Shown: piece by piece, positions 11,720-36,580 of the stretch
Numbering within the stretch: position 1 is the stretch's first letter
Layout: each line of letters starts with the position of its first letter
Assembly: GCA_043821745.1 (NCBI GenBank)
Contig: JBDRCL010000061.1
Location: 1 to 36,580, forward strand
Source of the DNA: Methanobacteriota archaeon
GTDB taxonomy: Archaea; Hadarchaeota; Hadarchaeia; Hadarchaeales; Hadarchaeaceae
Direction: 5' to 3'
DNA length: 36,580 bases
Translations under genes and position numbers: made by a program
The notes under the pieces: model-generated
What the model saw: the letters and a program-made list of their open reading frames with translations, nothing else
Told to the model about the DNA's origin: nothing
Database searches by the model: none

Positions 11720-13021
11720 TCACTCCACGTGCCCGGTCCACTTGTGCTTCATGATGACCGGCTTTGTTATCACCAGCGTGTTCGGCGAGACGTCTTCGTA
11801 GACGACCGCTCCCGGGCCGACCGCCGCGTTCGGGCCTATCTTCACGCCGGGATTGATCATCGAGTTGACGCCGGTCTTGACGTCGTCGCCTATCACCGTG
11901 CCGAGCTTCTTCCTGCCCGTGTTCACGATCCTGCCGCTCACCTTCATCTTCACCGCGCCCTCGTCCAGGCGCAGATTGGCGATGGTCGTCCCAGCCCCGA
12001 GGTTGCATCTGCTGCCGATGATGCTGTCGCCGACATAGGAAAGGTGGGCCACGTTGGTGTGGTCCATGATAATGCTGTTCTTGATCTCGACGCCGTTGCC
12101 CACCCTGACGTGGTCGCCGACGCTCGTCGCCGGGCGGATGAAGCAGTTAGGGCCGATGTCGCAGTTCTTGCCCACGTAGGTCGGGCCCTCGATGTAGGAG
12201 CCGGAGCGGATCCTGGTGCCCTCGCCGATGTAGACGTTCGACTCGATGTAGGCGCCGTGCTCGATCTTGCCGTGGATCTCGCCCTTTAGCTTCCTGAGGA
12301 AGTACTCGTTGGCGATCAGGAGGTCCCAGGGCCGGCCTATATCGGCCCAGAGATCGAGCGGTGAGGTGAAGACCTCGCCGCCCTTGTCGATCGTTATCTG
12401 GATGGAGGAGGTGATTTCATACTCGCCGCGCTTGGATTTCTTCGTCCTCCTTACGGCGTCGAAGATTTTTGAATCGAAAAGATAAATCCCGGCGTTCGCC
12501 AGCCGGCTCTTCACGTGCTTCGGCTTCTCGACTATCTCGGTCACCTTGTCGCCCTTTATGAAGACTATGCCGAACTGCTCGGGGTTCTCCACCTCTATCG
12601 TCCCCATCAGGCAGGAGAAGTTCTTCCTCTTGCCCAGCTTTTTGTAGCGGGCCATGAAGGCGTTCAGCGACTCCTGGTCCACCAGCGTGTCACCGTTCAC
12701 CACCACGAAGCGCTCGCCGCCCACAAATTTCTCCGCCAGCGAGACGGCGTTGGCCGTGCCCAGCAGCTCCTTCTGCTGCAGGTATTCCACCCTGACGCCC
12801 AGGTTCGAGCCATTGCTGTAGCGCTCCATGATCTGCTCCTTCCCGAAGCCGACGACCATGGCGATCTTGTCGATGCCCGCGTTCCGGAGCAGCGATATCA
12901 CGTGGTCGAGCGCCGGCTTTCCTCCGACCGGGAGCAGGAACTTTGGCTTCGTGAACGTCAGTGGCCTCATCCTCGTGCCCAGGCCCGCCGCCAGGATGAC
13001 TGCCTTCATGTCCATCACCAT
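11720..13021 (-). CDS. bifunctional sugar-1-phosphate nucleotidylyltransferase / left-handed beta-helix acetyltransferase (archaeal GlmU-like)
   Basis: N-terminus MKAVILAAGLGTRMRPLTFTKPKFLLPVGGKP (nucleotidyltransferase). The C-terminal half is rich in hexapeptide repeats (IGEGTRIRSGSYIEGPTYVGKNCDIGPNCFIRP...). Confidence 0.85.
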   Translation of the reverse strand: MVMDMKAVILAAGLGTRMRPLTFTKPKFLLPVGGKPALDHVISLLRNAGIDKIAMVVGFGKEQIMERYSNGSNLGVRVEYLQQKELLGTANAVSLAEKFVGGERFVVVNGDTLVDQESLNAFMARYKKLGKRKNFSCLMGTIEVENPEQFGIVFIKGDKVTEIVEKPKHVKSRLANAGIYLFDSKIFDAVRRTKKSKRGEYEITSSIQITIDKGGEVFTSPLDLWADIGRPWDLLIANEYFLRKLKGEIHGKIEHGAYIESNVYIGEGTRIRSGSYIEGPTYVGKNCDIGPNCFIRPATSVGDHVRVGNGVEIKNSIIMDHTNVAHLSYVGDSIIGSRCNLGAGTTIANLRLDEGAVKMKVSGRIVNTGRKKLGTVIGDDVKTGVNSMINPGVKIGPNAAVGPGAVVYEDVSPNTLVITKPVIMKHKWTGHVE

Positions 13022-13078
13022 TATTCTTGTGGCGGGGGCTAATAAAATGTTGAGAGCTCAAGTTTTGGAAAATTTTTC

Positions 13079-13154
13079 CCTTATAAATAACGCCCCTTCA
13101 AAAGCTCGGTGTGACACACGTATATCATCCCCCTGAATTTTCTTCTTTATAAAC
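13079..13154. promoter_or_regulatory. divergent promoter region with two TATA-like boxes (TTATAAATA about 13081-13089; TTTATAAA 13146-13153)
   Basis: A/T boxes in an otherwise GC-rich spacer between divergent genes. The second box is about 35 nt upstream of the TTG at 13185. Confidence 0.3.
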
Positions 13155-13184
13155 AACCGCGCCGCAAATGCTGGACGGGGATAT

Positions 13185-13508
13185 TTGAAGCTGGTCCACT
13201 ATCAGACCCTCGAGGCCGTCGAGCCCGAGGAGCTGCGGCAACTGGTCAGGATCAAGGCTAGGTTCAACGGGGAGCGCGGTTTCTGGGAGCGCATCAAGCT
13301 TTGGCGCAAGTCCGACATTCTGGAGAAGCTGGAGCCGAGCGGCGCCAGGTGGGGTTTCACCCGGACGCGGGACGACGAGGACAGACTGCGGCTGGTGCTG
13401 ACCCTAAGGGAGATGTCGCAGGCCACGCCGAGGCTGACCTGGGTCCTCTGCGACGAGTGCAACGGGGGCAAGGAGGTCGTGCTGAAGGGCGGCACGGCTG
13501 TGACATAA
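13185..13508 (+). CDS. hypothetical protein (C-terminal CxxC)
   Basis: 107-aa ORF with host-like GC-rich codon usage and a TTG start. No recognisable family. Confidence 0.45.
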   Translation: MKLVHYQTLEAVEPEELRQLVRIKARFNGERGFWERIKLWRKSDILEKLEPSGARWGFTRTRDDEDRLRLVLTLREMSQATPRLTWVLCDECNGGKEVVLKGGTAVT

Positions 13509-13550
13509 CAACCCGAATACAATAGGGCCGTGTCGTTATGCCTCAATTGT

Positions 13551-13786
13551 TCAATTTGCACGCCTTTTTTCTATCATTCTACCTATGACGGCTGAGGCCA
13601 TTATAAGCCCAATCCAGAAAATCAAGACAAGTTGAAGCCCTACTATATCCACTTCCCAAGGTTTGGCTGGGGTCCAGTTATTGTGTTCAGGGTATGCGTT
13701 CCCCATTTTAGAGGAAAGCCGTACTCCACATGCACAAAATCGGGCCAATCGTATCTGAACCCATAAGTCAGACCGATAAATGCCAT
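13551..13786 (-). pseudogene. possible frameshifted small membrane-protein gene
   Basis: Two overlapping minus-strand frames. 13786..13643 reads MAFIGLTYGFRYDWPDFVHVEYGFPLKWGTHTLNTITGPQPNLGKWI*. 13748..13551 ends in a clear TM helix, WEVDIVGLQLVLIFWIGLIMASAVIGRMIEKRRAN*. A 1-nt shift near 13650-13665 would fuse them. Confidence 0.25.
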
Positions 13787-13905
13787 GACGAGAAAAGCAT
13801 TATAACGCCTGATTTCACTAAAAGGAGCTTCATGCTTGCGTATCGATGTTTCGAAGTGGAGGAAACATCAAAAAATTAAAATTTATATTTTTTTCTGGCT
13901 AAAGA

Positions 13906-13914
13906 TTATAAATA
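13906..13914 (+). promoter_or_regulatory. TATA-like box (TTATAAATA) for the rubrerythrin-like gene
   Basis: About 40 nt upstream of the GTG at 13953. AGGAGGG lies at 13941-13947, 5 nt before the start. Confidence 0.4.
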
Positions 13915-13952
13915 TGTAGAAAATGCAATAATCACTGAAAAGGAGGGATAAT

Positions 13953-14471
13953 GTGGCGAAATTGTGGAGATGCGAAATCTGTGGAGATCCTTATATCGGA
14001 GAAAACCCGCCAGATAACTGCCCCTTTTGCGGAGCGCATAGAAATTACATAAAAGGGGCAAAAGAAGCCCAAGTTAATTTTAATGTTGAACTAAATGAAA
14101 AGGATAAAGCGAATGCCGAGCGCGCTCTACAGGTAGAAGTAAGTAACGCCGTATTTTACTTCTGCGCCGCCGAAAAAACAGACGACGATGAAGGAAAATT
14201 ATTGTTTAAGGCTTTGGGAAAAGTGGAAGCAGAACATGCCAGTGTTTGGAAGAAAATATTAAAGCTTGAAAAGGTGCCTAAAGGGGAAGCGTCATGTCAC
14301 CTAGGCAATAAAAAAAATTTAGAAGAATCTCATGCAAGAGAGACAAGAGCCATTGAATTTTATAAAAAGGCAGGCGCAGAATCCGGAAATGGGCGAGTAA
14401 AACAGATATTTGAAGCGTTCGTCGAAGTAGAAATGGATCATTTAGAACTTTCGCGAAAGAGATTAAAATAA
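13953..14471 (+). CDS. rubrerythrin-family protein with N-terminal rubredoxin-like Zn/Fe ribbon ('reverse' domain order)
   Basis: N-terminus WRCEICGDPY...CPFCGA. The ferritin-like four-helix part has E...EAEH...E...EVEMDH di-iron ligand spacing. GTG start with a strong SD. Markedly AT-rich codon usage. Confidence 0.75.
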   Translation: MAKLWRCEICGDPYIGENPPDNCPFCGAHRNYIKGAKEAQVNFNVELNEKDKANAERALQVEVSNAVFYFCAAEKTDDDEGKLLFKALGKVEAEHASVWKKILKLEKVPKGEASCHLGNKKNLEESHARETRAIEFYKKAGAESGNGRVKQIFEAFVEVEMDHLELSRKRLK

Positions 14472-14720
14472 CGCAAATGTATGAAATCTAAAAATGCTAA
14501 ATTTGTGGAAAATTAAATATCACTTCCACCCACCCTTTCCACCCTCTTAGGAAAAGAAGCATTTTAATGGCGTTTACCGTTGTTCGCCGTTAAAGTCGTG
14601 CTCTGATTGGCTGGAAGGGATGCTCAACGTGCCCAGATGGCATTTGACCAAGGTGAAAATTAGGAACACATTAAAAAAGTTAAAATTTAACCCAAGTTTC
14701 ACCAATAGTATCCGGTAAAG

Positions 14721-18501: not shown

Positions 18502-19116
18502 TTACTCGCTTTTAACTTCGCCCTGAGGTTGGACCGCGCTGCCGATGACCTTGCTCTTGTAGACCTCTACCCTTCTGATCGGGCAGTATTTCCTGGCCTC
18601 CTTGTAGATGTCCGCGGAGAGCTTCCCGAGCACCGCCTCCTGAACGAACTGGTCCATGGTGCGATCGGCCGCCCTCGACTCGACGACCTTGCGCATGTCC
18701 TTGTGAATCAGGTCCAGCTTGGTGCTCTGTACCCGCCTCAGCGTGGTCACCATGGAGCTGACCCGCAGCTTGTAGCCGTCCTTGGTGGTCACTGTCGCGA
18801 TGTCGTCGATCTTTCCGGCCCGCCGCTTAATCTGGCTGCGGACATAGTCCCGGGCCATCTCGTGGCCGATGAAGCCGGTCACTGCCTGCTTGTCCTTGAC
18901 CTCCTTGACCTGGAAGTAAAGCTTGATGTGCGACTTTGAAAAGTCCTCGATGAGGTCGCCCAGAGTAGTCTCGAAGACCCGCCCCTGAACCTGGGCCGGG
19001 TTGGTAGTAAACGTCTCACCTATCTTCTGGCTGCCAAACATCTGTGGAGCCACTACCTCGAACCACTCCTTATCACGCCAGGATTTCTTCAGCACGCGCT
19101 TTTTTTCTTCGGACAT
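18502..19116 (-). CDS. rps3ae: 30S ribosomal protein S3Ae (eS1)
   Basis: MSEEKKRVLKKSWRDKEWFEVVAPQMFGSQKIGETFT... ATG 19116 overlaps the serS stop (TAATG). The longer ORF to 19257 lies inside serS. Confidence 0.92.
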   Translation of the reverse strand: MSEEKKRVLKKSWRDKEWFEVVAPQMFGSQKIGETFTTNPAQVQGRVFETTLGDLIEDFSKSHIKLYFQVKEVKDKQAVTGFIGHEMARDYVRSQIKRRAGKIDDIATVTTKDGYKLRVSSMVTTLRRVQSTKLDLIHKDMRKVVESRAADRTMDQFVQEAVLGKLSADIYKEARKYCPIRRVEVYKSKVIGSAVQPQGEVKSE

Positions 19117-20621
19117 TATTCCACCACCTTTGGAACGGACGGCAGCGAACCGAACCGCTTTTTCACCGGATATGGCCACTTCGACGGGTCGAGGCCGTGC
19201 TGGGCGAGGAATCCCACCACCCAGCGGCTCGTCCCGAAGCCGCAGCAGCCCGTCCAAACCTGCCGACCTTTGACCTCCTTGATTTTAAAGGTTTCCACGA
19301 ACTTGGTTTTGTGGACATTGTAGGAGCCTATCTCCAGCCAGCTGTCGTTGTAGGGCAGCGGCACTTCGATATCGTAGGTCGCCACCTTGCTGCTGTCCGT
19401 GCCGTCGCCGATGGCACCCTCCTTCATGTAGAATGGCGTCGCGACCAGCAGCCTCCACTCCATCCCCAGCTCGTCCGCGACCTTCATACCCCTTTCGACG
19501 ACCAAGTCTCTGATCGAGACCACGTCGTCCGGAGACCCGATGAACACTAACTCGGTACGTCTGAACTCCTGCGTTCGGACCAGGCCCTCCACGCCGCCGC
19601 CCTCCCACCGATAAGTCCAGCCGCTGCGGTCGAACTGCTTCACGGGAAGATCCTCGAGCCTGACGTTCTTGGAAGCGAACTGTTCGTAGAAGGGCTCGCA
19701 CTGCGCCGGGGCCAGGACGTAGGCCGGCTCCTTGATCGTCTCCCTGAGCTCCTTCACCGGAATGCGCTTGGTCAGCTTGAGCTTCTGCTTAAAGTCCTGG
19801 AACGCCTCGGGTTCGCGTGGCGGCGGCGAGACGTAATACATGCCCTCGGGCACGCCATCAAGATAACCTGGCATCCTTTGCATGACCTCAAGCGGTATGA
19901 GCTTGGGCAGCATGACCTCCTCGAACTTCAGCGGTCGCGCCACCTCTTCAATTATTATATCCTCAATAGCCCGCATCAACTTCGCGTACGGCTCCTCGTA
20001 TATCCACTGGCCGCGGCCGGGGAAGTCCCGAATCCAGCCCAATTTCTTGGCGACGTCGAACGGGTTCTCCTTGAATGCGTGTGCCCTCTTGGGCCCCTGC
20101 TTGACGACTTTCGGCTCGGCGGCCTTGGCGGAAGCGTGAGATATAATCTCCTCGACCATCGAGACCAGCCTGTCGACGACCCTGCCCCTCAGGTCGCCCT
20201 CCGTGAGTCCCTTCATGTTAATCTCGACCAGTGACTCTCCGACCGTCACCTCGTAGGGCAGCCTCTTCAGCTCGGCTGTCGCCTCTTCGGACACCTCGGC
20301 GGTCTGCAGGACAACCTTGTACTCGCTGGCAGTTATCCCACGTATGCCGACCTTGTGCTTTTTGCCAATCTCTGTGGCCAGAAGATTCGCAAGCCTAAGA
20401 AGAGCATCGTGGGCCCTGACGTAACGACCCGACTCAAGATCAATGCAAAGTTCCTTGCCAGCAGACTTCCAACTGACAATTCTGGCCGCGTCAGCTTCCT
20501 TGCCCTGGGGCGCACCCTTCTTGAGTGTGGGCTCGGCCTTCTGCATGATCGCGGCTATGTCCGCATCCGCTTTCTTGATTTCACCGCTGAACGTGAGTTT
20601 CGCCTTTAGTTCAAACCTCAT
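19116..20621 (-). CDS. serS: seryl-tRNA synthetase, atypical methanogen-type
   Basis: MRFELKAKLTF...SGRYVRAHDALLRLANLLATEIGKKHKVGIRGI...FDRSGWTYRWEGGGVEGLVRTQEFRRTELVFIG...GCCGFGTSRWVVGFLAQHGLDPSKWP. As I recall, this closely parallels the Methanosarcina barkeri-type SerRS, not the bacterial type. Confidence 0.85.
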   Translation of the reverse strand: MRFELKAKLTFSGEIKKADADIAAIMQKAEPTLKKGAPQGKEADAARIVSWKSAGKELCIDLESGRYVRAHDALLRLANLLATEIGKKHKVGIRGITASEYKVVLQTAEVSEEATAELKRLPYEVTVGESLVEINMKGLTEGDLRGRVVDRLVSMVEEIISHASAKAAEPKVVKQGPKRAHAFKENPFDVAKKLGWIRDFPGRGQWIYEEPYAKLMRAIEDIIIEEVARPLKFEEVMLPKLIPLEVMQRMPGYLDGVPEGMYYVSPPPREPEAFQDFKQKLKLTKRIPVKELRETIKEPAYVLAPAQCEPFYEQFASKNVRLEDLPVKQFDRSGWTYRWEGGGVEGLVRTQEFRRTELVFIGSPDDVVSIRDLVVERGMKVADELGMEWRLLVATPFYMKEGAIGDGTDSSKVATYDIEVPLPYNDSWLEIGSYNVHKTKFVETFKIKEVKGRQVWTGCCGFGTSRWVVGFLAQHGLDPSKWPYPVKKRFGSLPSVPKVVE

Positions 20622-20749
20622 CCAATCGCCAAAGACCAAATTAATCGCAAGCTATGAAAAGCTTGCCCTCGTCGAATAACGTCTGCTCATTTGGTCTTAA
20701 CTCATCCCGCTCCAATTTTTGACCGCGTGCCCGCGATGCTCTCTAAACT

Positions 20750-31356: not shown

Positions 31357-32235
31357 ATGGTCGAGCTAGTGTTCCTTGGATCGGGAGGCGGAAGATTCCA
31401 GACGATCAACCAGTACTTCAAAACGGGCGGGTTCAGGATTCATGCGGGAGTCAATGTGCACGTTGACCCGGGACCGGGCGCGCTATTGCTTACGCACAAA
31501 TATGGGTTGGACCCTTCGGATTTGGATGGCATCGTCGTCACGCACTGCCACCCTGACCACTACACGGACGCAGAAGTTTTGATTGAAGCAATAGCACAGC
31601 ACATGGCAGCTGAAGACATAGGGAGATCCTTTGGCAAAAAAAGAGGCACATTTATCGGCAGCAAGAGCGTCATCGAGGGGGTCGGGAATTACGGTCCGGC
31701 AGTCTCCCGATACCACCAAACCAAACTCGAGAAACTAGCAGTCCTTGAGCCCGGGGAGAAATTTCAGCTCGGCAATATTGAAATCGAATCGATGCCGACG
31801 AAACACAGCGATCCAACTTCAATCGGCATAATATTCCGCACTGAAAAAGGAGAGATAGGTTACACCAGCGACACCCAGTATTTTGAGGATATCGAAAAGT
31901 ACTTCAGGGGAGTGCGGGTTCTTATAGCAAACGTCACGCGTCCGCTGTCGATGCGGATACCGTGGCATCTTTGCTCGGATGATTTTATTAAAATTTTGAA
32001 TAAGGTCAAGCCAGAGCTGGCCGTGATGATACACATGGGCATGTTGTTCCTCAAGCATTCGCCTTCGAAGGAGGCTTCCAGAATAAAATCGGAGACGGGC
32101 GTGGAGACCATCCCGGGGCAAGCCGGATTGAGGATTAATCTCGATGGGGAGATCAAAATAGTGCGTCCGCCAAACCAACCCACTCTGGAAGAGTTCGCCA
32201 AATTAAAAACGGAAAAATTCTCTAACGCACAGTAG
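31357..32235 (+). CDS. MBL-fold metallo-hydrolase
   Basis: VVTHCHPDHY (HxHxDH) and a GSGGG N-terminus. 292 aa. Confidence 0.75.
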   Translation: MVELVFLGSGGGRFQTINQYFKTGGFRIHAGVNVHVDPGPGALLLTHKYGLDPSDLDGIVVTHCHPDHYTDAEVLIEAIAQHMAAEDIGRSFGKKRGTFIGSKSVIEGVGNYGPAVSRYHQTKLEKLAVLEPGEKFQLGNIEIESMPTKHSDPTSIGIIFRTEKGEIGYTSDTQYFEDIEKYFRGVRVLIANVTRPLSMRIPWHLCSDDFIKILNKVKPELAVMIHMGMLFLKHSPSKEASRIKSETGVETIPGQAGLRINLDGEIKIVRPPNQPTLEEFAKLKTEKFSNAQ

Positions 32236-32483: not shown

Positions 32484-34094
32484 TTGTTGCTCTCCGTAAA
32501 TTTTTGGGATCTGCCACATCGGCGTACCTCCATTATCTTCTCTGAGGATTTTTCGCAGGTTATTCATAATACAGTGGCGAATTTGTTCGACAAAAATCTC
32601 ACCAAAGCGTCAAAAACAATTGGTATACCAAAAAGTCTTTTCTACCGCCTTGAGCAAAAAAGGCGCATTAGAATCGACAATCTTTTCAAGCTGCTAAATT
32701 TTTTAGGTGCTCGCGATTCAACATTTTCTACAAAGGCTGCCCAGAGACACTTAATTTGGATAGGACCAGCACATGGAAGAGGAATATCCAACCCTTGCTT
32801 TCCAATCGAGCTTCAGAACAATGCATTGGTGCGAACAGCCGCCAGAGCTTGTGGAGATGGGATTCTAACTAGAACTTATGGACTTCGCCATGGTTATGGA
32901 ACTATAATCTACTACGCAAAGGAGGATCCAGAACAGCTGCAAAACGCGATTGATGACGCCATCATTGCCTTTGGAGGAAATGTCCAAACATACAGGATTA
33001 ATTTCGGCAAGGACATCTACTTAGTTTACCCCACTGTCGTGCGTGATGTCTTGTTATTCGCAGGAGTGATGACAAGTCCAAAAGCAGAAAGCGAACGCGG
33101 CGTCCCGGAGTTTGTGATGAAAAGCGAAAAAGCGACTACTTGGGTTGCTTGGCTTCAACAAACGGGGGACGATGAAGGGCATGTTGTTTATCACCCGCAA
33201 CATAACCTATATGGCATCTACTGGCGTCGATCCACCGACATTACTGGACTCCTGCCTGGCATTGAGCTTAGGGCCGGGGAGCGGATTTCCATTCATATAT
33301 CATCAGACGACGTTCGGGAACACGTGGTAGGGCGATCACCGAAATTGATAGCCGATGAGCAGGGGCTTCTCAGTAGGCTCCGCATTACCTCCACAGTCAC
33401 TCCTTTGGAGATTTACCGAACTCTTAATGGAAAACTTCGGGTCAAGTGGCAACTCCGCATTAGCGGTCCTGATAACTTGATTCGATATGGTAGAAAAGTA
33501 GGGTTTCGGATTACGAGGAAATCAACCGCGCTAGCTAAAGCAATGGACCAATGCGTAAGTTACGAAAAAATTATCTTACCAATTCTTAACGACCTTCAAC
33601 AGAAACACGGCTACCTCGATGCAAGATCGGTATCAATGAGACTGGGCGGTTGCCTAGTTCCCCATTCAAACAAAACAACCATTTCCGGGTTGGTCGCTTT
33701 ACGAGAAATGTCCAAACGAGGCTATGTCCATAAAATAAGCGAGGGACGGTACATCAAAAAATTGAAGAAGTACATTCCATCAAGATACGTTATAACTAGC
33801 AAGGGAACAAGAAGGCTTAAAGAGATTTGCGACCAATTCCATTATCTGGATGAAAAGGTGGGAGGTGGTTCAGCGAATAAAGTGACAGCAGAAGTTCCGG
33901 CAGCTTACGATCCACTTGAGGCAGAACCAAAATGGCGGAAGAAGTGGAAAGAATTGGGTATTCACAGCTTCCGACGCGACGATTACGAAACGCCGACCTA
34001 TATTATCGATACCCCGCCGCCATATTCCTCGCAAGAGGGTGGAGCCGAGCGGGGAGTTCCACATGGGCACGGCGCTGAATTGGACGTACTTTGA
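32484..34094 (+). CDS. LAGLIDADG-like (double-motif) homing-endonuclease-type protein with N-terminal HTH and C-terminal winged helix; the ORF reads through into valS exon 1
   Basis: TTG 32484 has GAGG 5 nt upstream. HTH is [27 protein letters not shown]-like motifs are [14 protein letters not shown] (about 32830-32867) and [15 protein letters not shown] (about 33141-33185). Between and after them come the expected beta-strand/helix segments (...[18 protein letters not shown]). The wHTH is [18 protein letters not shown]...ITSKGTRRL. The last ~70 residues are the ValRS N-terminus plus out-of-frame read into intron 1 and exon 2. Low GC relative to its neighbours. Confidence 0.6.
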
Positions 34095-36580
34095 TATCGT
34101 CGCTCGCTATAAGCGGATGCGCGGCTTCAACGTGATGTTTCCCCAGGGATCCCCGTGAAGTGCTGTAACGGCATATTCATGGGCCTGAATGGGACTGTCA
34201 CGGGCTGCCCACCGAGGTCCAAGTGGAGAAACGCTACGGGATAAGAAAGGGCGACCTGCCGGCGGAGAAGTTCCGAGAGCTCTGCGTCAAGCTGACCAGC
34301 GAAAACATATCTCACATGCGAGAAGAGATGAACTCCTTCGGGTTTTCAATAGACTGGTCCACTGAGTACCGGACGATGGATCCGAGCTATTACGGCAAGA
34401 CCCAGCTTTCGTTCGTGCAGCTTTACAAGAAAGGGCTCATCTACAGGGGCGAGCACCCGGTCAACTGGTGCCCCCGCTGTGAGACCGCAATCGCGGACGC
34501 CGAGGTGGAGTACGGGGAGAGGAGCACCAAGCTGAACTACGTAAAGTTCAAGCTCGCCGGGGATGACGGGGCGTTGACCATTGCCACCACGCGTCCCGAG
34601 TACCTGCCGGCGTGCGTTGTGGTGGCGGTCCATCCGAACGACGAGAGGTACCGGAGATACGTCGGGGGAAAGCTCGAGGTCCCGCCATTCGGTCACGTCG
34701 TAGAGATTATAAAGGACACGGAGGTCGACCCTGGGTTCGGCACGGGAGTCGTGATGGTGTGCACATTCGGGGACAAGACCGACGTGCGCTGGGTGAAGCG
34801 CTACAAGCTGCCGGTCATCAAGCTGATCGATGAGAAGGGCGCGATGACGGAAGCCGCTGGAAAATATTCAAAGATGACGATGGAGGAGGCGCGACGCGCG
34901 ATAATCGAGGACCTGCGCGCGGCTGGATCGCTCGAAAAGCAGGAAGAGCTGCCGCAGAGCGTCGGTGTCTGCTGGCGCTGCAAGACTGTCGTCGAGATCT
35001 TGACGAAACCGCAGTGGTTCATGCGCGTGCTCGACCTAAACAAAAAAGTGGTCGAGGAGGCCAAACGCGTGAGGTGGGTACCGGACTACATGCGCACCAG
35101 ATTCGTCGACTGGACGAACTCGATGGACTGGGACTGGGTGATCTCGCGGCAGAGGATCTTTGCCACGCCGATCCCGGCCTGGTACTGCTCCAAATGCAGG
35201 GAACCGATAGTGGCTGAAGAGAAGCAGCTGCCGGTCAACCCTGCGAGGGACAAGCCGCCGGTCGAGAAATGCCAGAGCTGTGGCAACCAGAACTTCGATC
35301 CGGAACCGGACGTACTCGACACCTGGATGGACAGCTCGATAACTATCGCAGCTCATGCGGGATGGCCCGACATCGACCAACGTCTCTTCCCAGCCGACCT
35401 TCAGCCGAACGGGACGGACATCATCAGAACCTGGGACTATTACCTGATGGTCCGTCACCTCGCGCTACTGGGCAAGGCACCATACAAGACCGTGTTGGTC
35501 AACGGCATGGTGCTCGGAACCGACGGCAGGGCGATGCACAAATCGCTCGGGAATTACGTTGACAGCACAAAGGCCCGAGAGAAATACGGCGCCGATGCGC
35601 TCCGCCAGTGGGCGGCGATAGGGGCGTCGACCGGCTCGGACATACCGTTCACCTGGAAGGACGTGGAGTTCGGATACCGGTTCATGCGAAAGTTATGGAA
35701 CGCTGCCCGATTCGCCGGCCCGCATCTGAACTCAAAAGTTGCAAAGCTCGAGGTCAAAAAAATAAAGCTGACGCCCGTGGACCGCTGGCTCCTGAGCAGG
35801 CTCAACAGGCTGGTGAAGAACGTCACGGGATGGCTCGAGGACTTCCAGTTCAACCGTGCTCTCGGCGATATTCAAAACTTCGTATGGCACGAGCTCTGCG
35901 ACATGTACATCGAGGAAGTGAAGCACCGGCTTTACGCCGGCGACCGGACCACCGAAGCGGCCGCCTTCACCCTTTACCAGGCCATGCTGACTTCAGTCAA
36001 GCTCCTCGCCCCGTTCATACCTCACTTCGCCGAAGAAGTCTATCAGACGTACTTCGCCGGAGACCAGCAACTGCCGAGCGTTCACAGCTTCGGCTGGCCG
36101 GACGCCGACGAGAGCCTGATAGATGAATCCGCGGAGAAGCTCGGTGAAATTGCCAACCTTGCGATAAGCACTCTGCGGCAGTTCAAGTCCACGAGGAAGA
36201 TGGCCCTCAGCGCCGAGATACCAAAACTTGAGATCTACACGGCGAACAATGACGTCGCCAAACAGCTGAAGGAAATAAAAAATGATATCGCCGGCACCAT
36301 GCGGGTTAAAGAAGTTAAGATAATAACCAACAAGCCGGAGCTGAAAGAGCGCGTGCTCTCGGTGGAACCGAACCTGGCGAGGCTGGGTTCAAGATTGCGC
36401 GGCGACGTAAAGATCGTCACTGAGGCCCTGCGAAACGCCAAGCCGGAAGAAATCTCGAAACTTATGGGCAAGGGCAAAATGACCATAAATGAAGCAGGGA
36501 AAACCATCGAACTTTCAATCGAGGATTTGAAAATAGTCAGTGAACTGGAAAGCGAGGGTCACAAGGTCGAAGTCATCGAT
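33882..36580 (+). CDS. valS: valyl-tRNA synthetase, split by two BHB mini-introns (exons 33882..34025, 34045..34149, 34190..>36580; 3' end beyond window)
   Basis: Own three-frame reading gives (V)[47 protein letters not shown] | [35 protein letters not shown] | [18 protein letters not shown]...[21 protein letters not shown]...[16 protein letters not shown]...[12 protein letters not shown]...WFMRV...[17 protein letters not shown]...[10 protein letters not shown]...[11 protein letters not shown]...[11 protein letters not shown]... Exon 3 is an uninterrupted 797-codon frame to the window end; it is absent from the ORF track because it is edge-truncated. The start codon is uncertain (GTG 33882, or fusion to the upstream ORF). 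Confidence 0.88.
34026..34044 (+). other. 19-nt bulge-helix-bulge (BHB) intron 1 in valS
   Basis: Canonical hBHBh' geometry (see finding). Removal joins CCA UAU|CCG AGC, giving PPPY|PSGEFHMG in frame. Confidence 0.8.
34150..34189 (+). other. 40-nt bulge-helix-bulge (BHB) intron 2 in valS
   Basis: Canonical hBHBh' geometry (see finding). Removal joins CAG GGA|UGG GAC, giving FPQG|WDCHG in frame. Confidence 0.8.

Follow-up and report, generated by a model that had tools for sequence, protein, structure and literature searches.

We analysed a 36,580-nucleotide (nt) stretch of DNA from a Hadarchaeota archaeon (contig JBDRCL010000061.1, assembly GCA_043821745.1), referred to here as the window, which carries on its + strand the valyl-tRNA synthetase (ValRS) gene, valS. 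Three-frame translation, inspected over 33700-34400, shows that valS is spread over three reading frames, interrupted by two short inserts that are very probably archaeal bulge-helix-bulge (BHB) introns, removed from the mRNA by the tRNA-splicing machinery. The parts of the gene, with the two predicted introns and the RNA motifs around them in their minimum-free-energy (MFE) folds, are as follows.

33882..34025, + strand: valS exon 1, frame 0, ending ...IIDTPPPY, last codon at 34023-25
34012..34054, + strand: predicted BHB motif 1, folding as outer helix, 3-nt bulge, 4-bp helix, 3-nt bulge and inner hairpin
34026..34044, + strand: predicted intron 1, 19 nt, UCCUCGCAAGAGGGUGGAG, separating codon Y58 from P59 immediately ahead of the HIGH (FHMG) motif
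34045..34149, + strand: valS exon 2, frame +1, 35 codons, PSGEFHMG...MFPQG
34140..34194, + strand: predicted BHB motif 2, with outer helix UCCC/GGGA, central helix CAGG/CCUG and a long inner hairpin
34150..34189, + strand: predicted intron 2, 40 nt, between G93 and W94 (FPQG before it, WDCHGLP after it), with an in-frame UGA at 34156-58
34190..36580, + strand: valS exon 3, frame +2, beginning WDCHGLP, open to the end of the window, 3' end incomplete

Past 34025, frame 0 runs into nonsense and then into a stop at 34092-94. A preliminary description of this DNA had reported a single BHB intron in valS, a 19-nt insert at 34026-34044 that breaks the frame; translation confirms this insert to the nucleotide, and its assignment as an intron is supported, but the description missed the 40-nt insert at 34150-34189, which makes the probable number of introns two. 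Removal of both inserts yields an uninterrupted 890-residue ValRS (partial at its 3' end), which aligns with Thermus thermophilus ValRS (1GAX) without gaps at both junctions (E = 1e-123) and scores 1028 bits against the archaeal NCBIfam valine--tRNA ligase model, for which the cut-off is 738 bits. The spliced junction at site 1 also agrees with intron-less Hadarchaeota ValRS (for example L001; L numbers designate the sequences compared), in keeping with the homology that the preliminary description had invoked for it. The N-terminus of exon 1 was aligned with the N-termini of relatives, MEIPKEYNPL...; the start codon is probably GTG 33882, preceded by a Shine-Dalgarno-like GGAGGTG at 33861-67, and GTG 33858 is a possible alternative.

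The inserts extend beyond this one genome. The nearest ValRS genes, at 62-80% identity, lie in Hadarchaeota/Hadesarchaea metagenome-assembled genomes (MAGs), as found in a scan of one genome per species, and tblastn with the spliced protein reveals a frame switch exactly between residues 58 and 59 in L022 and L029 and reads through both inserts in L025. Metagenome contigs searched with an exon-anchored DNA pattern, in which the insert was left unconstrained, added 16 more contigs with an insert at the intron 1 site, along with two unrelated chance matches. Intron 1, in a 19-nt or a 16-nt form, is present in 20 Hadarchaeota contigs including the window, the others being three genome-derived and 16 metagenome contigs; the preliminary description had pointed to related valS genes as a place to look for the same insert, and these 19 contigs carry it at the same site. 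Intron 2 is found in 16 of the 20. In a rough neighbour-joining tree, the intron alleles fall into six or more lineages with intron-less lineages interspersed, and the intron-bearing assemblies are independent, stemming from numerous projects (MAGs at NCBI, contigs at JGI and ENA) and showing lineage-specific insert variants. The valS introns are a lineage-wide, patchily distributed polymorphism.

RNA structure at the insert sites and predicted splicing

According to our model, each exon-intron boundary pair in the pre-mRNA would fold into a helix, a 3-nt bulge, a 4-bp helix, a second 3-nt bulge and a helix, and the tRNA splicing endonuclease EndA would cut after the second nucleotide of each bulge. 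An RtcB-type ligase would then join the exons, fusing the three frames into one open reading frame (ORF) for a normal ValRS. We infer EndA cleavage and RtcB ligation of the valS mRNA from the sequence and its predicted folds. The motif recognised by all archaeal EndA types is a 4-bp helix with a 3-nt bulge on either side (PMC7714728), Hadesarchaea possess an alpha4 EndA with an L3 loop and have many disrupted tRNA genes (PMC5829648), and archaeal tRNA introns range from 11 to 175 nt (PMC2738675).

At site 1, the RNAfold MFE structure of 34010-34056 is identical to the motif drawn in the preliminary description. Its outer helix pairs 34012-19 with 34046-54, leaving A34048 bulged; the central 4-bp helix, CCAU/GUGG, is flanked by the 5' bulge AUU (34024-26) and the 3' bulge AGC (34043-45); and the inner helix, CCUC/GAGG, is closed by a GCAA loop. 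This is exactly the 3-4-3 architecture of an EndA substrate, namely a 4-bp helix with 3-nt bulges on opposite strands, each located 3' of its central-helix strand, and the flanking helices measure 2 bp, the bulged A and 6 bp on the outer side and 4 bp on the inner side (3 bp in the 16-nt form). The fold has an energy of -23.1 kcal/mol (z = -3.0), which was equalled by 2 of 200 shuffled sequences.

In relatives, intron 1 reads UCCUCGCAAGAGGGUGGAA, with the loop variants ACAA, ACAG and GUAA or with one C-to-U change that makes a G-U pair, and in the 16-nt form, UCCUAAUAGGGUGGAA, the inner stem is cut to 3 bp but the central helix and the two bulges are retained. Across 13 distinct sequences, 99% of the cells are paired, compared with 42-53% when the partners are slid. 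Every one of these sequences, folded alone, forms the outer helix, the central helix and the 3' bulge, and the motif folds individually in 11 of the 13, the MFE structures of L085 and L094 showing an alternative 5' bulge. One exonic C-G pair is replaced by U-A by way of two synonymous sites, and the U-G intermediate also occurs.

At site 2, the bulges are AAU (34188-90) on the 3' side and, in the 3-nt register, GAU (34148-50) on the 5' side, given as GAU(C) in the fold of the window. RNAalifold, applied to 11 distinct intron 2 sequences, independently predicts the order helix, 3-nt bulge, 4-bp helix, 3-nt bulge, helix. All 12 distinct intron 2 sequences fold individually into a BHB motif, and the 3-4-3 arrangement appears in the RNAalifold consensus and in 10 of the 12 individual folds, with an outer helix of 4 bp and an inner stem of 8-14 bp. 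Intron 2 is 30, 37, 38, 40, 41 or 42 nt long in relatives, covering all three residue classes modulo 3, and its inner stems are strongly divergent between alleles, with compensatory changes. Because MAFFT misaligns the inner hairpin of intron 2, pair counting was left off the whole motif 2 alignment, and RNAalifold and per-sequence folds were used instead.

The cut rule was calibrated on hadarchaeal tRNA genes. Comparison of the intron-less tRNA-Ala(CGC) gene of L010 (1596-1670) with the intron-bearing one of L013 (91-178) sets each cut after the second nucleotide of its 3-nt bulge, with the same strand geometry as in valS. Copies in L008, L045, L083 and L015 were also compared with that of L010, and L014 (1005-1082) with L083 (1806-1898). 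Cutting valS at the corresponding bulge positions removes exactly 34026-34044 in motif 1, as had been claimed for this insert, and exactly 34150-34189 in motif 2, and restores the ValRS frame. The hadarchaeal genes for tRNA-Ala(CGC) and tRNA-Ile(GAU) occur with or without introns of 13-16 nt depending on the species, the tRNA-Ala intron being 13 nt, and ARAGORN in bacterial mode gave the intron-bearing copies odd 4-base anticodons. Within the window itself, there was no tRNA match by ARAGORN and no Rfam match; a self-splicing group I or group II intron, which would need a ribozyme core of hundreds of nucleotides, was ruled out on the latter result and on the insert lengths of 16-42 nt.

Selection, chance level and competing explanations

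When the window is compared with other intron alleles, every exon being read in its own frame, the ratio of nonsynonymous to synonymous substitution (dN/dS) amounts to 0.07-0.16 in exons 1 and 2 together and to 0.04-0.09 in exon 3, at saturated synonymous sites (pS = 0.5-0.76), and exon 3, about 800 codons, is free of stops in every intron allele. This purifying selection on all three exons, despite the saturation, indicates that valS is not a pseudogene and not an artefact. Synonymous positions in the exonic motif halves behave differently: P59 CCG, S60 AGC and Q92 CAG are fixed in 17 of 17 intron alleles, and F90 TTT, P91 CCC and G93 GGA in all 15 intron-2 alleles, whereas 36 intron-less Hadarchaeota relatives use all synonymous codons at the P59, S60 and F90-G93 positions. 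The synonymous codons that form the exonic motif halves are frozen only in intron-bearing alleles.

Several observations weigh against the assignment of these inserts as BHB introns. The minimal BHB pattern (3 + 4 + 3 base pairs, G-U allowed) is common by chance, with 426 matches in the window and 344-445 in shuffled versions of it. At site 1, just 2 bp of the outer helix stand ahead of the bulged A, and the covariation is thin, amounting to one compensatory pair, with the observed score attained by 22 of 500 shuffles, since intron 1 is almost invariant. The MFE fold of the window at site 2 has a 4-nt 5' bulge, the 3-nt register being available and seen in relatives. An outer-helix mismatch occurs in some alleles (C.A in L022, A.C in L088). 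Also, the pattern used to search metagenomes had CCGCCATAT fixed, which makes the invariance of codons P56-Y58 partly a matter of ascertainment, and neither EndA nor RtcB is among the genes of the window, of which 20 others, annotated by Pfam, are ordinary intact housekeeping genes.

On the matter of chance, the strict BHB pattern is not enriched in the window relative to shuffles, and a window-wide scan for BHB introns that would merge ORFs was uninformative, returning hundreds of chance candidates in this GC-rich sequence. The significance lies in BHB motifs on the exact positions required by homology, twice within 165 nt and recurring in relatives; the chance of a BHB at one such pre-specified pair of positions is about 5e-5 (strict) to 4e-4 (relaxed).

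With two frame breaks and premature stops in the gene as written, and only 36.6 kb of the genome visible, valS might be taken for a decaying pseudogene in which the inserts are disabling indels, the enzyme being supplied by a second, intact valS elsewhere. We consider this very improbable: dN/dS is 0.04-0.16 in all three exons in their own frames, with saturated dS; none of the intron alleles has a stop in the roughly 800 codons of exon 3; and the same two inserts are found at the same sites in other contigs, 19 for intron 1 and 15 for intron 2. The preliminary description had itself named a second intact valS as a way in which its proposal could fail, and a genome scan found a single valS locus in each of three intron-bearing MAGs. 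Assembly or sequencing artefacts, which might be suspected in a window that probably derives from a metagenome assembly, are an almost negligible alternative. The inserts are unlikely to be assembly errors because they are present in independent assemblies from many projects, in lineage-specific variants, and inserts of 16-42 nt with conserved secondary structure correspond to no known type of sequencing error.

Ribosomal handling of the inserts is an alternative to which we give little credence, although slightly more than to those just named. Both forms of intron 1 (19 and 16 nt) are 1 modulo 3 in length and free of in-frame stops, which would in formal terms allow site 1 to be read by a programmed +1 frameshift through the 19 nt. 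A fixed frameshift is excluded for intron 2, however, because its lengths fall into all residue classes modulo 3 and it contains an in-frame stop, and bypassing of the kind known from phage T4 gene 60 is unlikely because the take-off and landing codons are unmatched, UAU versus GAG at site 1 and GGA versus GAA at site 2. Reading through intron 1 would add 5-6 residues directly before the HIGH motif, in a region that is contiguous in all intron-less ValRS, and the conserved feature at these sites is an RNA structure of the EndA-substrate type, with no conserved peptide or slippery site.

A LAGLIDADG-like reading frame linked to the introns

Two further features, upstream of valS, bear on how BHB introns may have reached this gene.

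31357..32235, + strand: metallo-beta-lactamase-fold (MBL) gene, Pfam Lactamase_B_2, E = 4e-25
32484..33857, + strand: free-standing LAGLIDADG homing-endonuclease-like ORF, 458 aa

The MBL-fold gene is the conserved left neighbour of Hadarchaeota valS and was used as a synteny anchor. It ends 50-90 nt upstream of valS in intron-less relatives, some loci having an unrelated gene there instead. In L001, L004, L005 and L006, which form one intron-less Hadarchaeum subgroup, a class III aminotransferase gene (about 1300-2800) lies between the MBL gene and valS, so the spacer between these two genes differs among lineages.

The LAGLIDADG-like ORF has an N-terminal helix-turn-helix (HTH), two LAGLIDADG domains and a C-terminal winged helix, and its GC content is 0.45, compared with 0.57 for valS. 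Just 11 close homologues were found among 5.8e9 proteins, and a profile search of the family returned about 210 clusters. Pfam and PDB sequence searches with the window ORF alone gave no match; Pfam LAGLIDADG_3 is matched by 30 of 60 sampled family members (best E = 3e-10), and in the PDB the profile of the family finds LAGLIDADG endonucleases of inteins (E = 5e-9; PI-PkoII at 4e-5). A first AlphaFold2 (AF2) model, built on 12 close homologues, had a predicted local distance difference test score (pLDDT) of 60 and no significant fold matches, and a model on a deep alignment reached a pLDDT of 92.6 and a predicted template modelling score (pTM) of 0.88. The best Foldseek matches of this second model are all LAGLIDADG enzymes (probability 1.0, E = 4e-7 to 7e-4), with the TliVMA intein homing endonuclease, PI-PkoII, PI-PfuI, PI-SceI and I-Tsp061I at the top and the I-DmoI-derived E-DreI also among the matches. 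The model thus predicts a two-domain LAGLIDADG fold for 32484-33857. The structural matches also include WhiA, a LAGLIDADG-derived, nuclease-dead transcription regulator with a C-terminal HTH, and nuclease activity of the ORF is for this reason not proven. Its LAGLIDADG motifs end in ...ACGD125G and ...GDD230E231G; D125 is nearly invariant and D230 invariant in both family alignments, G126 is invariant and G232 invariant or nearly so, and by analogy the acidic residues of the motifs would be catalytic. The ORF is under purifying selection, with a pN/pS of 0.27-0.29.

Most homologues of the ORF have their own stop codon. The window copy has none, and runs in frame into valS exon 1 to the stop at 34092-94; after splicing, its frame would continue into full-length ValRS. 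An endonuclease-ValRS fusion product is therefore possible, if the two are co-transcribed.

By tblastn, homologues of the ORF among Hadarchaeota valS loci are confined to intron-bearing ones, where they fall into type A (64-72% identical) and type B (about 31%). The ORF lies beside valS in 14 of 19 informative intron-bearing loci and in 0 of 33 intron-less ones (Fisher p = 7e-9), an association that persists when lineages are collapsed (9 of 14 versus 0 of 33, p = 1.5e-6). Type A loci always have both introns, and type B loci have either intron 1 alone or both; a simple rule tying endonuclease type to intron content was rejected because of this variation. A type-B-like ORF in L106 likewise stands upstream of a hadarchaeal valS with intron 1 and without intron 2. 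Among the intron-bearing loci, the ORF copy of L095 is disrupted, appearing as two tblastn pieces, and L083, L084, L091, L097 and L098 have the MBL gene directly adjacent and no ORF. Such decay or loss would fit a cycle in which a homing-endonuclease gene decays and the introns persist.

Comparison of closely related loci reveals tracts of divergent sequence that end at the introns. L022, which has intron 1 only and a type B ORF, and the intron-less L011 share 97% identity over the MBL gene and 96-98% over the part of valS that starts about 10 nt beyond intron 1. Between these conserved flanks, L022 has a 1.26-kb insertion with the ORF, an exon 1 at just 70% identity, and intron 1, and identity rises from about 65% to 98% roughly 10 nt past the intron. 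Similarly, L025, with both introns and a type A ORF, differs from the intron-less L008 in exon 1 (71% identical) and exon 2 (82%), and identity is 97-100% from the first nucleotide of exon 3, exactly where intron 2 ends on its 3' side. In their 5' regions, the intron-less clade members agree with one another at 0.77-0.94, and the rows of L022 and L025 are the lowest at 0.74-0.80, overlapping the low end of that range; with these lowest identities, the tracts look like imports into L022 and L025 and not like losses in the other members. Separate assemblies (L086 and L093; L090) show these arrangements again, which argues against chimeric contigs. Putative import tracts that comprise the ORF, exon 1 and the intron or introns, and end within about 10 nt of an intron 3' end, suggest homing. 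In addition, L089 and L002 are 92-93% identical throughout, with their differences clustering in the ~12 nt flanking each intron and including a TCA-to-AGC serine codon switch.

A comparable arrangement exists in L102, from an unrelated archaeon of 32% GC, where a homologous ORF (E = 3.5e-47 to the profile) lies directly upstream of valS. In the region 1842-1930, PPPYP and SGRPWHIG of this valS are separated by a 24-nt insert that includes an in-frame UAA, and the insert has a BHB-like fold with central helix AUCC/GGAU, 5' bulge AAA, 3' bulge AAG and a U.U mismatch closing the outer helix. Cutting after the second bulge nucleotide would give PYPSGRPWHIG, and the site is 4 nt from the hadarchaeal intron 1 site.

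Taken together, these data make it about an even chance, judging from sequence comparisons, that the valS mini-introns and the adjacent LAGLIDADG gene form an archaeal collaborative-homing unit and are mobile together. In such a unit, the LAGLIDADG endonuclease would cut intron-less valS in conserved DNA at the intron 1 site, at the FPQG-WDCHGLP junction, or at both, and the break would be repaired on an intron-bearing template, so that the recipient acquires the endonuclease gene, exon 1 and one or both introns. With its target site split by the BHB introns, the host allele would be protected, at no cost because the tRNA-splicing enzymes would remove them from the mRNA. If true, this would provide a concrete route by which BHB introns enter and spread in protein-coding genes, and would define a LAGLIDADG family specialised on class Ia synthetase genes (valS, leuS) across distant archaea.

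A serious competing possibility, to which we assign somewhat less than an even chance, is that the introns are spliced and the ORF is only a linked passenger, either a homing endonuclease with another target or a WhiA-like regulator devoid of nuclease activity, contributing neither to the spread of the introns nor to their protection. The presence of WhiA among the structural matches, the five intron-bearing loci that lack the ORF, and the family members beside leuS or argG, where no intron is visible, are all in line with a passenger. Such a role is harder to reconcile with an ORF at 14 of 19 informative intron-bearing loci and none of 33 intron-less ones, with two independent import tracts that end at an intron 3' end, with the conserved acidic residues in both LAGLIDADG motifs, or with the 24-nt BHB insert of L102, 4 nt from the intron 1 site and beside a homologous ORF.

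Distant members of the ORF family adjoin leuS in other archaeal metagenome contigs, tail-to-tail and with overlapping 3' ends in L099-L101, L103 and L104 (the gene at 4001-5272 in L099) and immediately upstream of leuS in L108; none of these leuS genes contains a visible insert. In L105 (1357-1479), an argininosuccinate-synthase-like gene (argG; AYSGGLDTS motif) begins immediately after family member P0019, again a highly conserved target region, and no insert is visible in this gene either. It may be that the family specialises in genes for class Ia aminoacyl-tRNA synthetases.

Elsewhere in the window, 13000-14700 is low in GC (0.43-0.49, compared with about 0.57 around it), with few long ORFs besides a rubrerythrin-like gene at 13953-14471. 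The - strand at 19116-20639 encodes a seryl-tRNA synthetase of the kind that is rare and archaeal, with a tRNA_bind_4 N-terminal domain and a class II core; about 140 nt of its long ORF are shared with the upstream end of the ORF for ribosomal protein S3Ae, whose start is probably over-extended.

Comparison with known systems

An intron in the cbf5 pre-mRNA of Crenarchaeota is reportedly the subject of work by Watanabe in 2002 and Yoshinari in 2006. In the searchable literature (open-access papers and preprints), EndA-dependent splicing of archaeal mRNA so far amounts to this one coding-sequence case and one case in a 5' untranslated region (UTR), that of HVO_1309; we found there no EndA-spliced mRNA for any aminoacyl-tRNA synthetase gene or for Hadarchaeota. 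The rarity asserted in the preliminary description is borne out, and valS appears to be the second coding sequence known with BHB introns, after cbf5. It would bring to this list an essential gene of translation that harbours two BHB introns and belongs to another phylum, with many natural variants for comparison. A 2023 review considered that more EndA-spliced archaeal mRNAs are probably still to be found (PMC10485636).

The case has several implications. Gene callers will mis-annotate such split genes as fragments or pseudogenes, and the coding potential of an mRNA can depend on the tRNA-splicing machinery. The linkage of the ORF and the tracts that end at introns make the origin and movement of BHB introns experimentally approachable, and they raise the question of whether BHB introns serve as immunity elements for homing endonucleases.

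The cbf5 intron is a short BHB intron in a coding sequence, removed by the tRNA splicing endonuclease, and its patchy distribution has been read as gain and loss (Yokobori 2009, PMC2738675). The valS introns are likewise short, of BHB type, located within a coding sequence and patchy. They differ in host gene and lineage, with two introns in one coding sequence of a Hadarchaeota aminoacyl-tRNA synthetase gene as opposed to cbf5 of TACK/Thermoproteota. Moreover, the cbf5 motifs are often relaxed and tied to an (alpha-beta)2 EndA, whereas those of valS are strict or near-strict 3-4-3, and the linked homing-endonuclease gene and recombination tracts seen at valS have no counterpart described in the cbf5 literature compared. 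The HVO_1309 intron of Haloferax volcanii, 46 nt long, is cut by EndA in vitro and has been detected in circular form (PMC7714728). It is an mRNA BHB intron like those of valS, but its location in the 5' UTR means that it neither interrupts a coding sequence nor shifts a frame.

Archaeal tRNA introns share with the valS introns an identical motif, strand geometry and cut positions, a similar size (13-16 nt in hadarchaeal tRNA genes), and presence or absence between close species. The difference is that the host RNA of the valS introns is an mRNA, in which the exonic motif halves are built from codons, and synonymous sites are consequently frozen. Archaeal rRNA BHB introns, as with I-DmoI and I-Tsp061I, also combine a BHB intron with a LAGLIDADG endonuclease, but there the endonuclease gene lies inside a large intron, whereas the valS introns are 16-42 nt and ORF-less, with the endonuclease-like gene free-standing 170-290 nt upstream.

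Collaborative homing is known for the free-standing endonuclease F-CphI and a group I intron devoid of a homing-endonuclease gene in cyanophage psbA (Zeng, Bonocora and Shub 2009, as described in PMC6083498), and T4 mobE/I-TevIII is a related case (PMC2790892). As at valS, a free-standing endonuclease gene stands beside a gene with an ORF-less intron, and the tracts at valS resemble co-conversion; the intron would disrupt the target of the endonuclease and both would move via double-strand-break repair, as we propose for valS. The phage systems differ in that their introns are self-splicing group I introns and their endonucleases are Endo VII-like or HNH enzymes, whereas at valS the predicted introns are protein-spliced BHB introns of a cellular archaeon and the candidate endonuclease is of the LAGLIDADG type. 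Finally, HAC1/XBP1 splicing by IRE1 with RtcB or Trl1 is also spliceosome-independent, with a protein endonuclease that cuts stem-loops in an mRNA, a tRNA ligase that joins the exons and a resulting change of frame, but it is eukaryotic and stress-regulated and relies on another nuclease and another motif.

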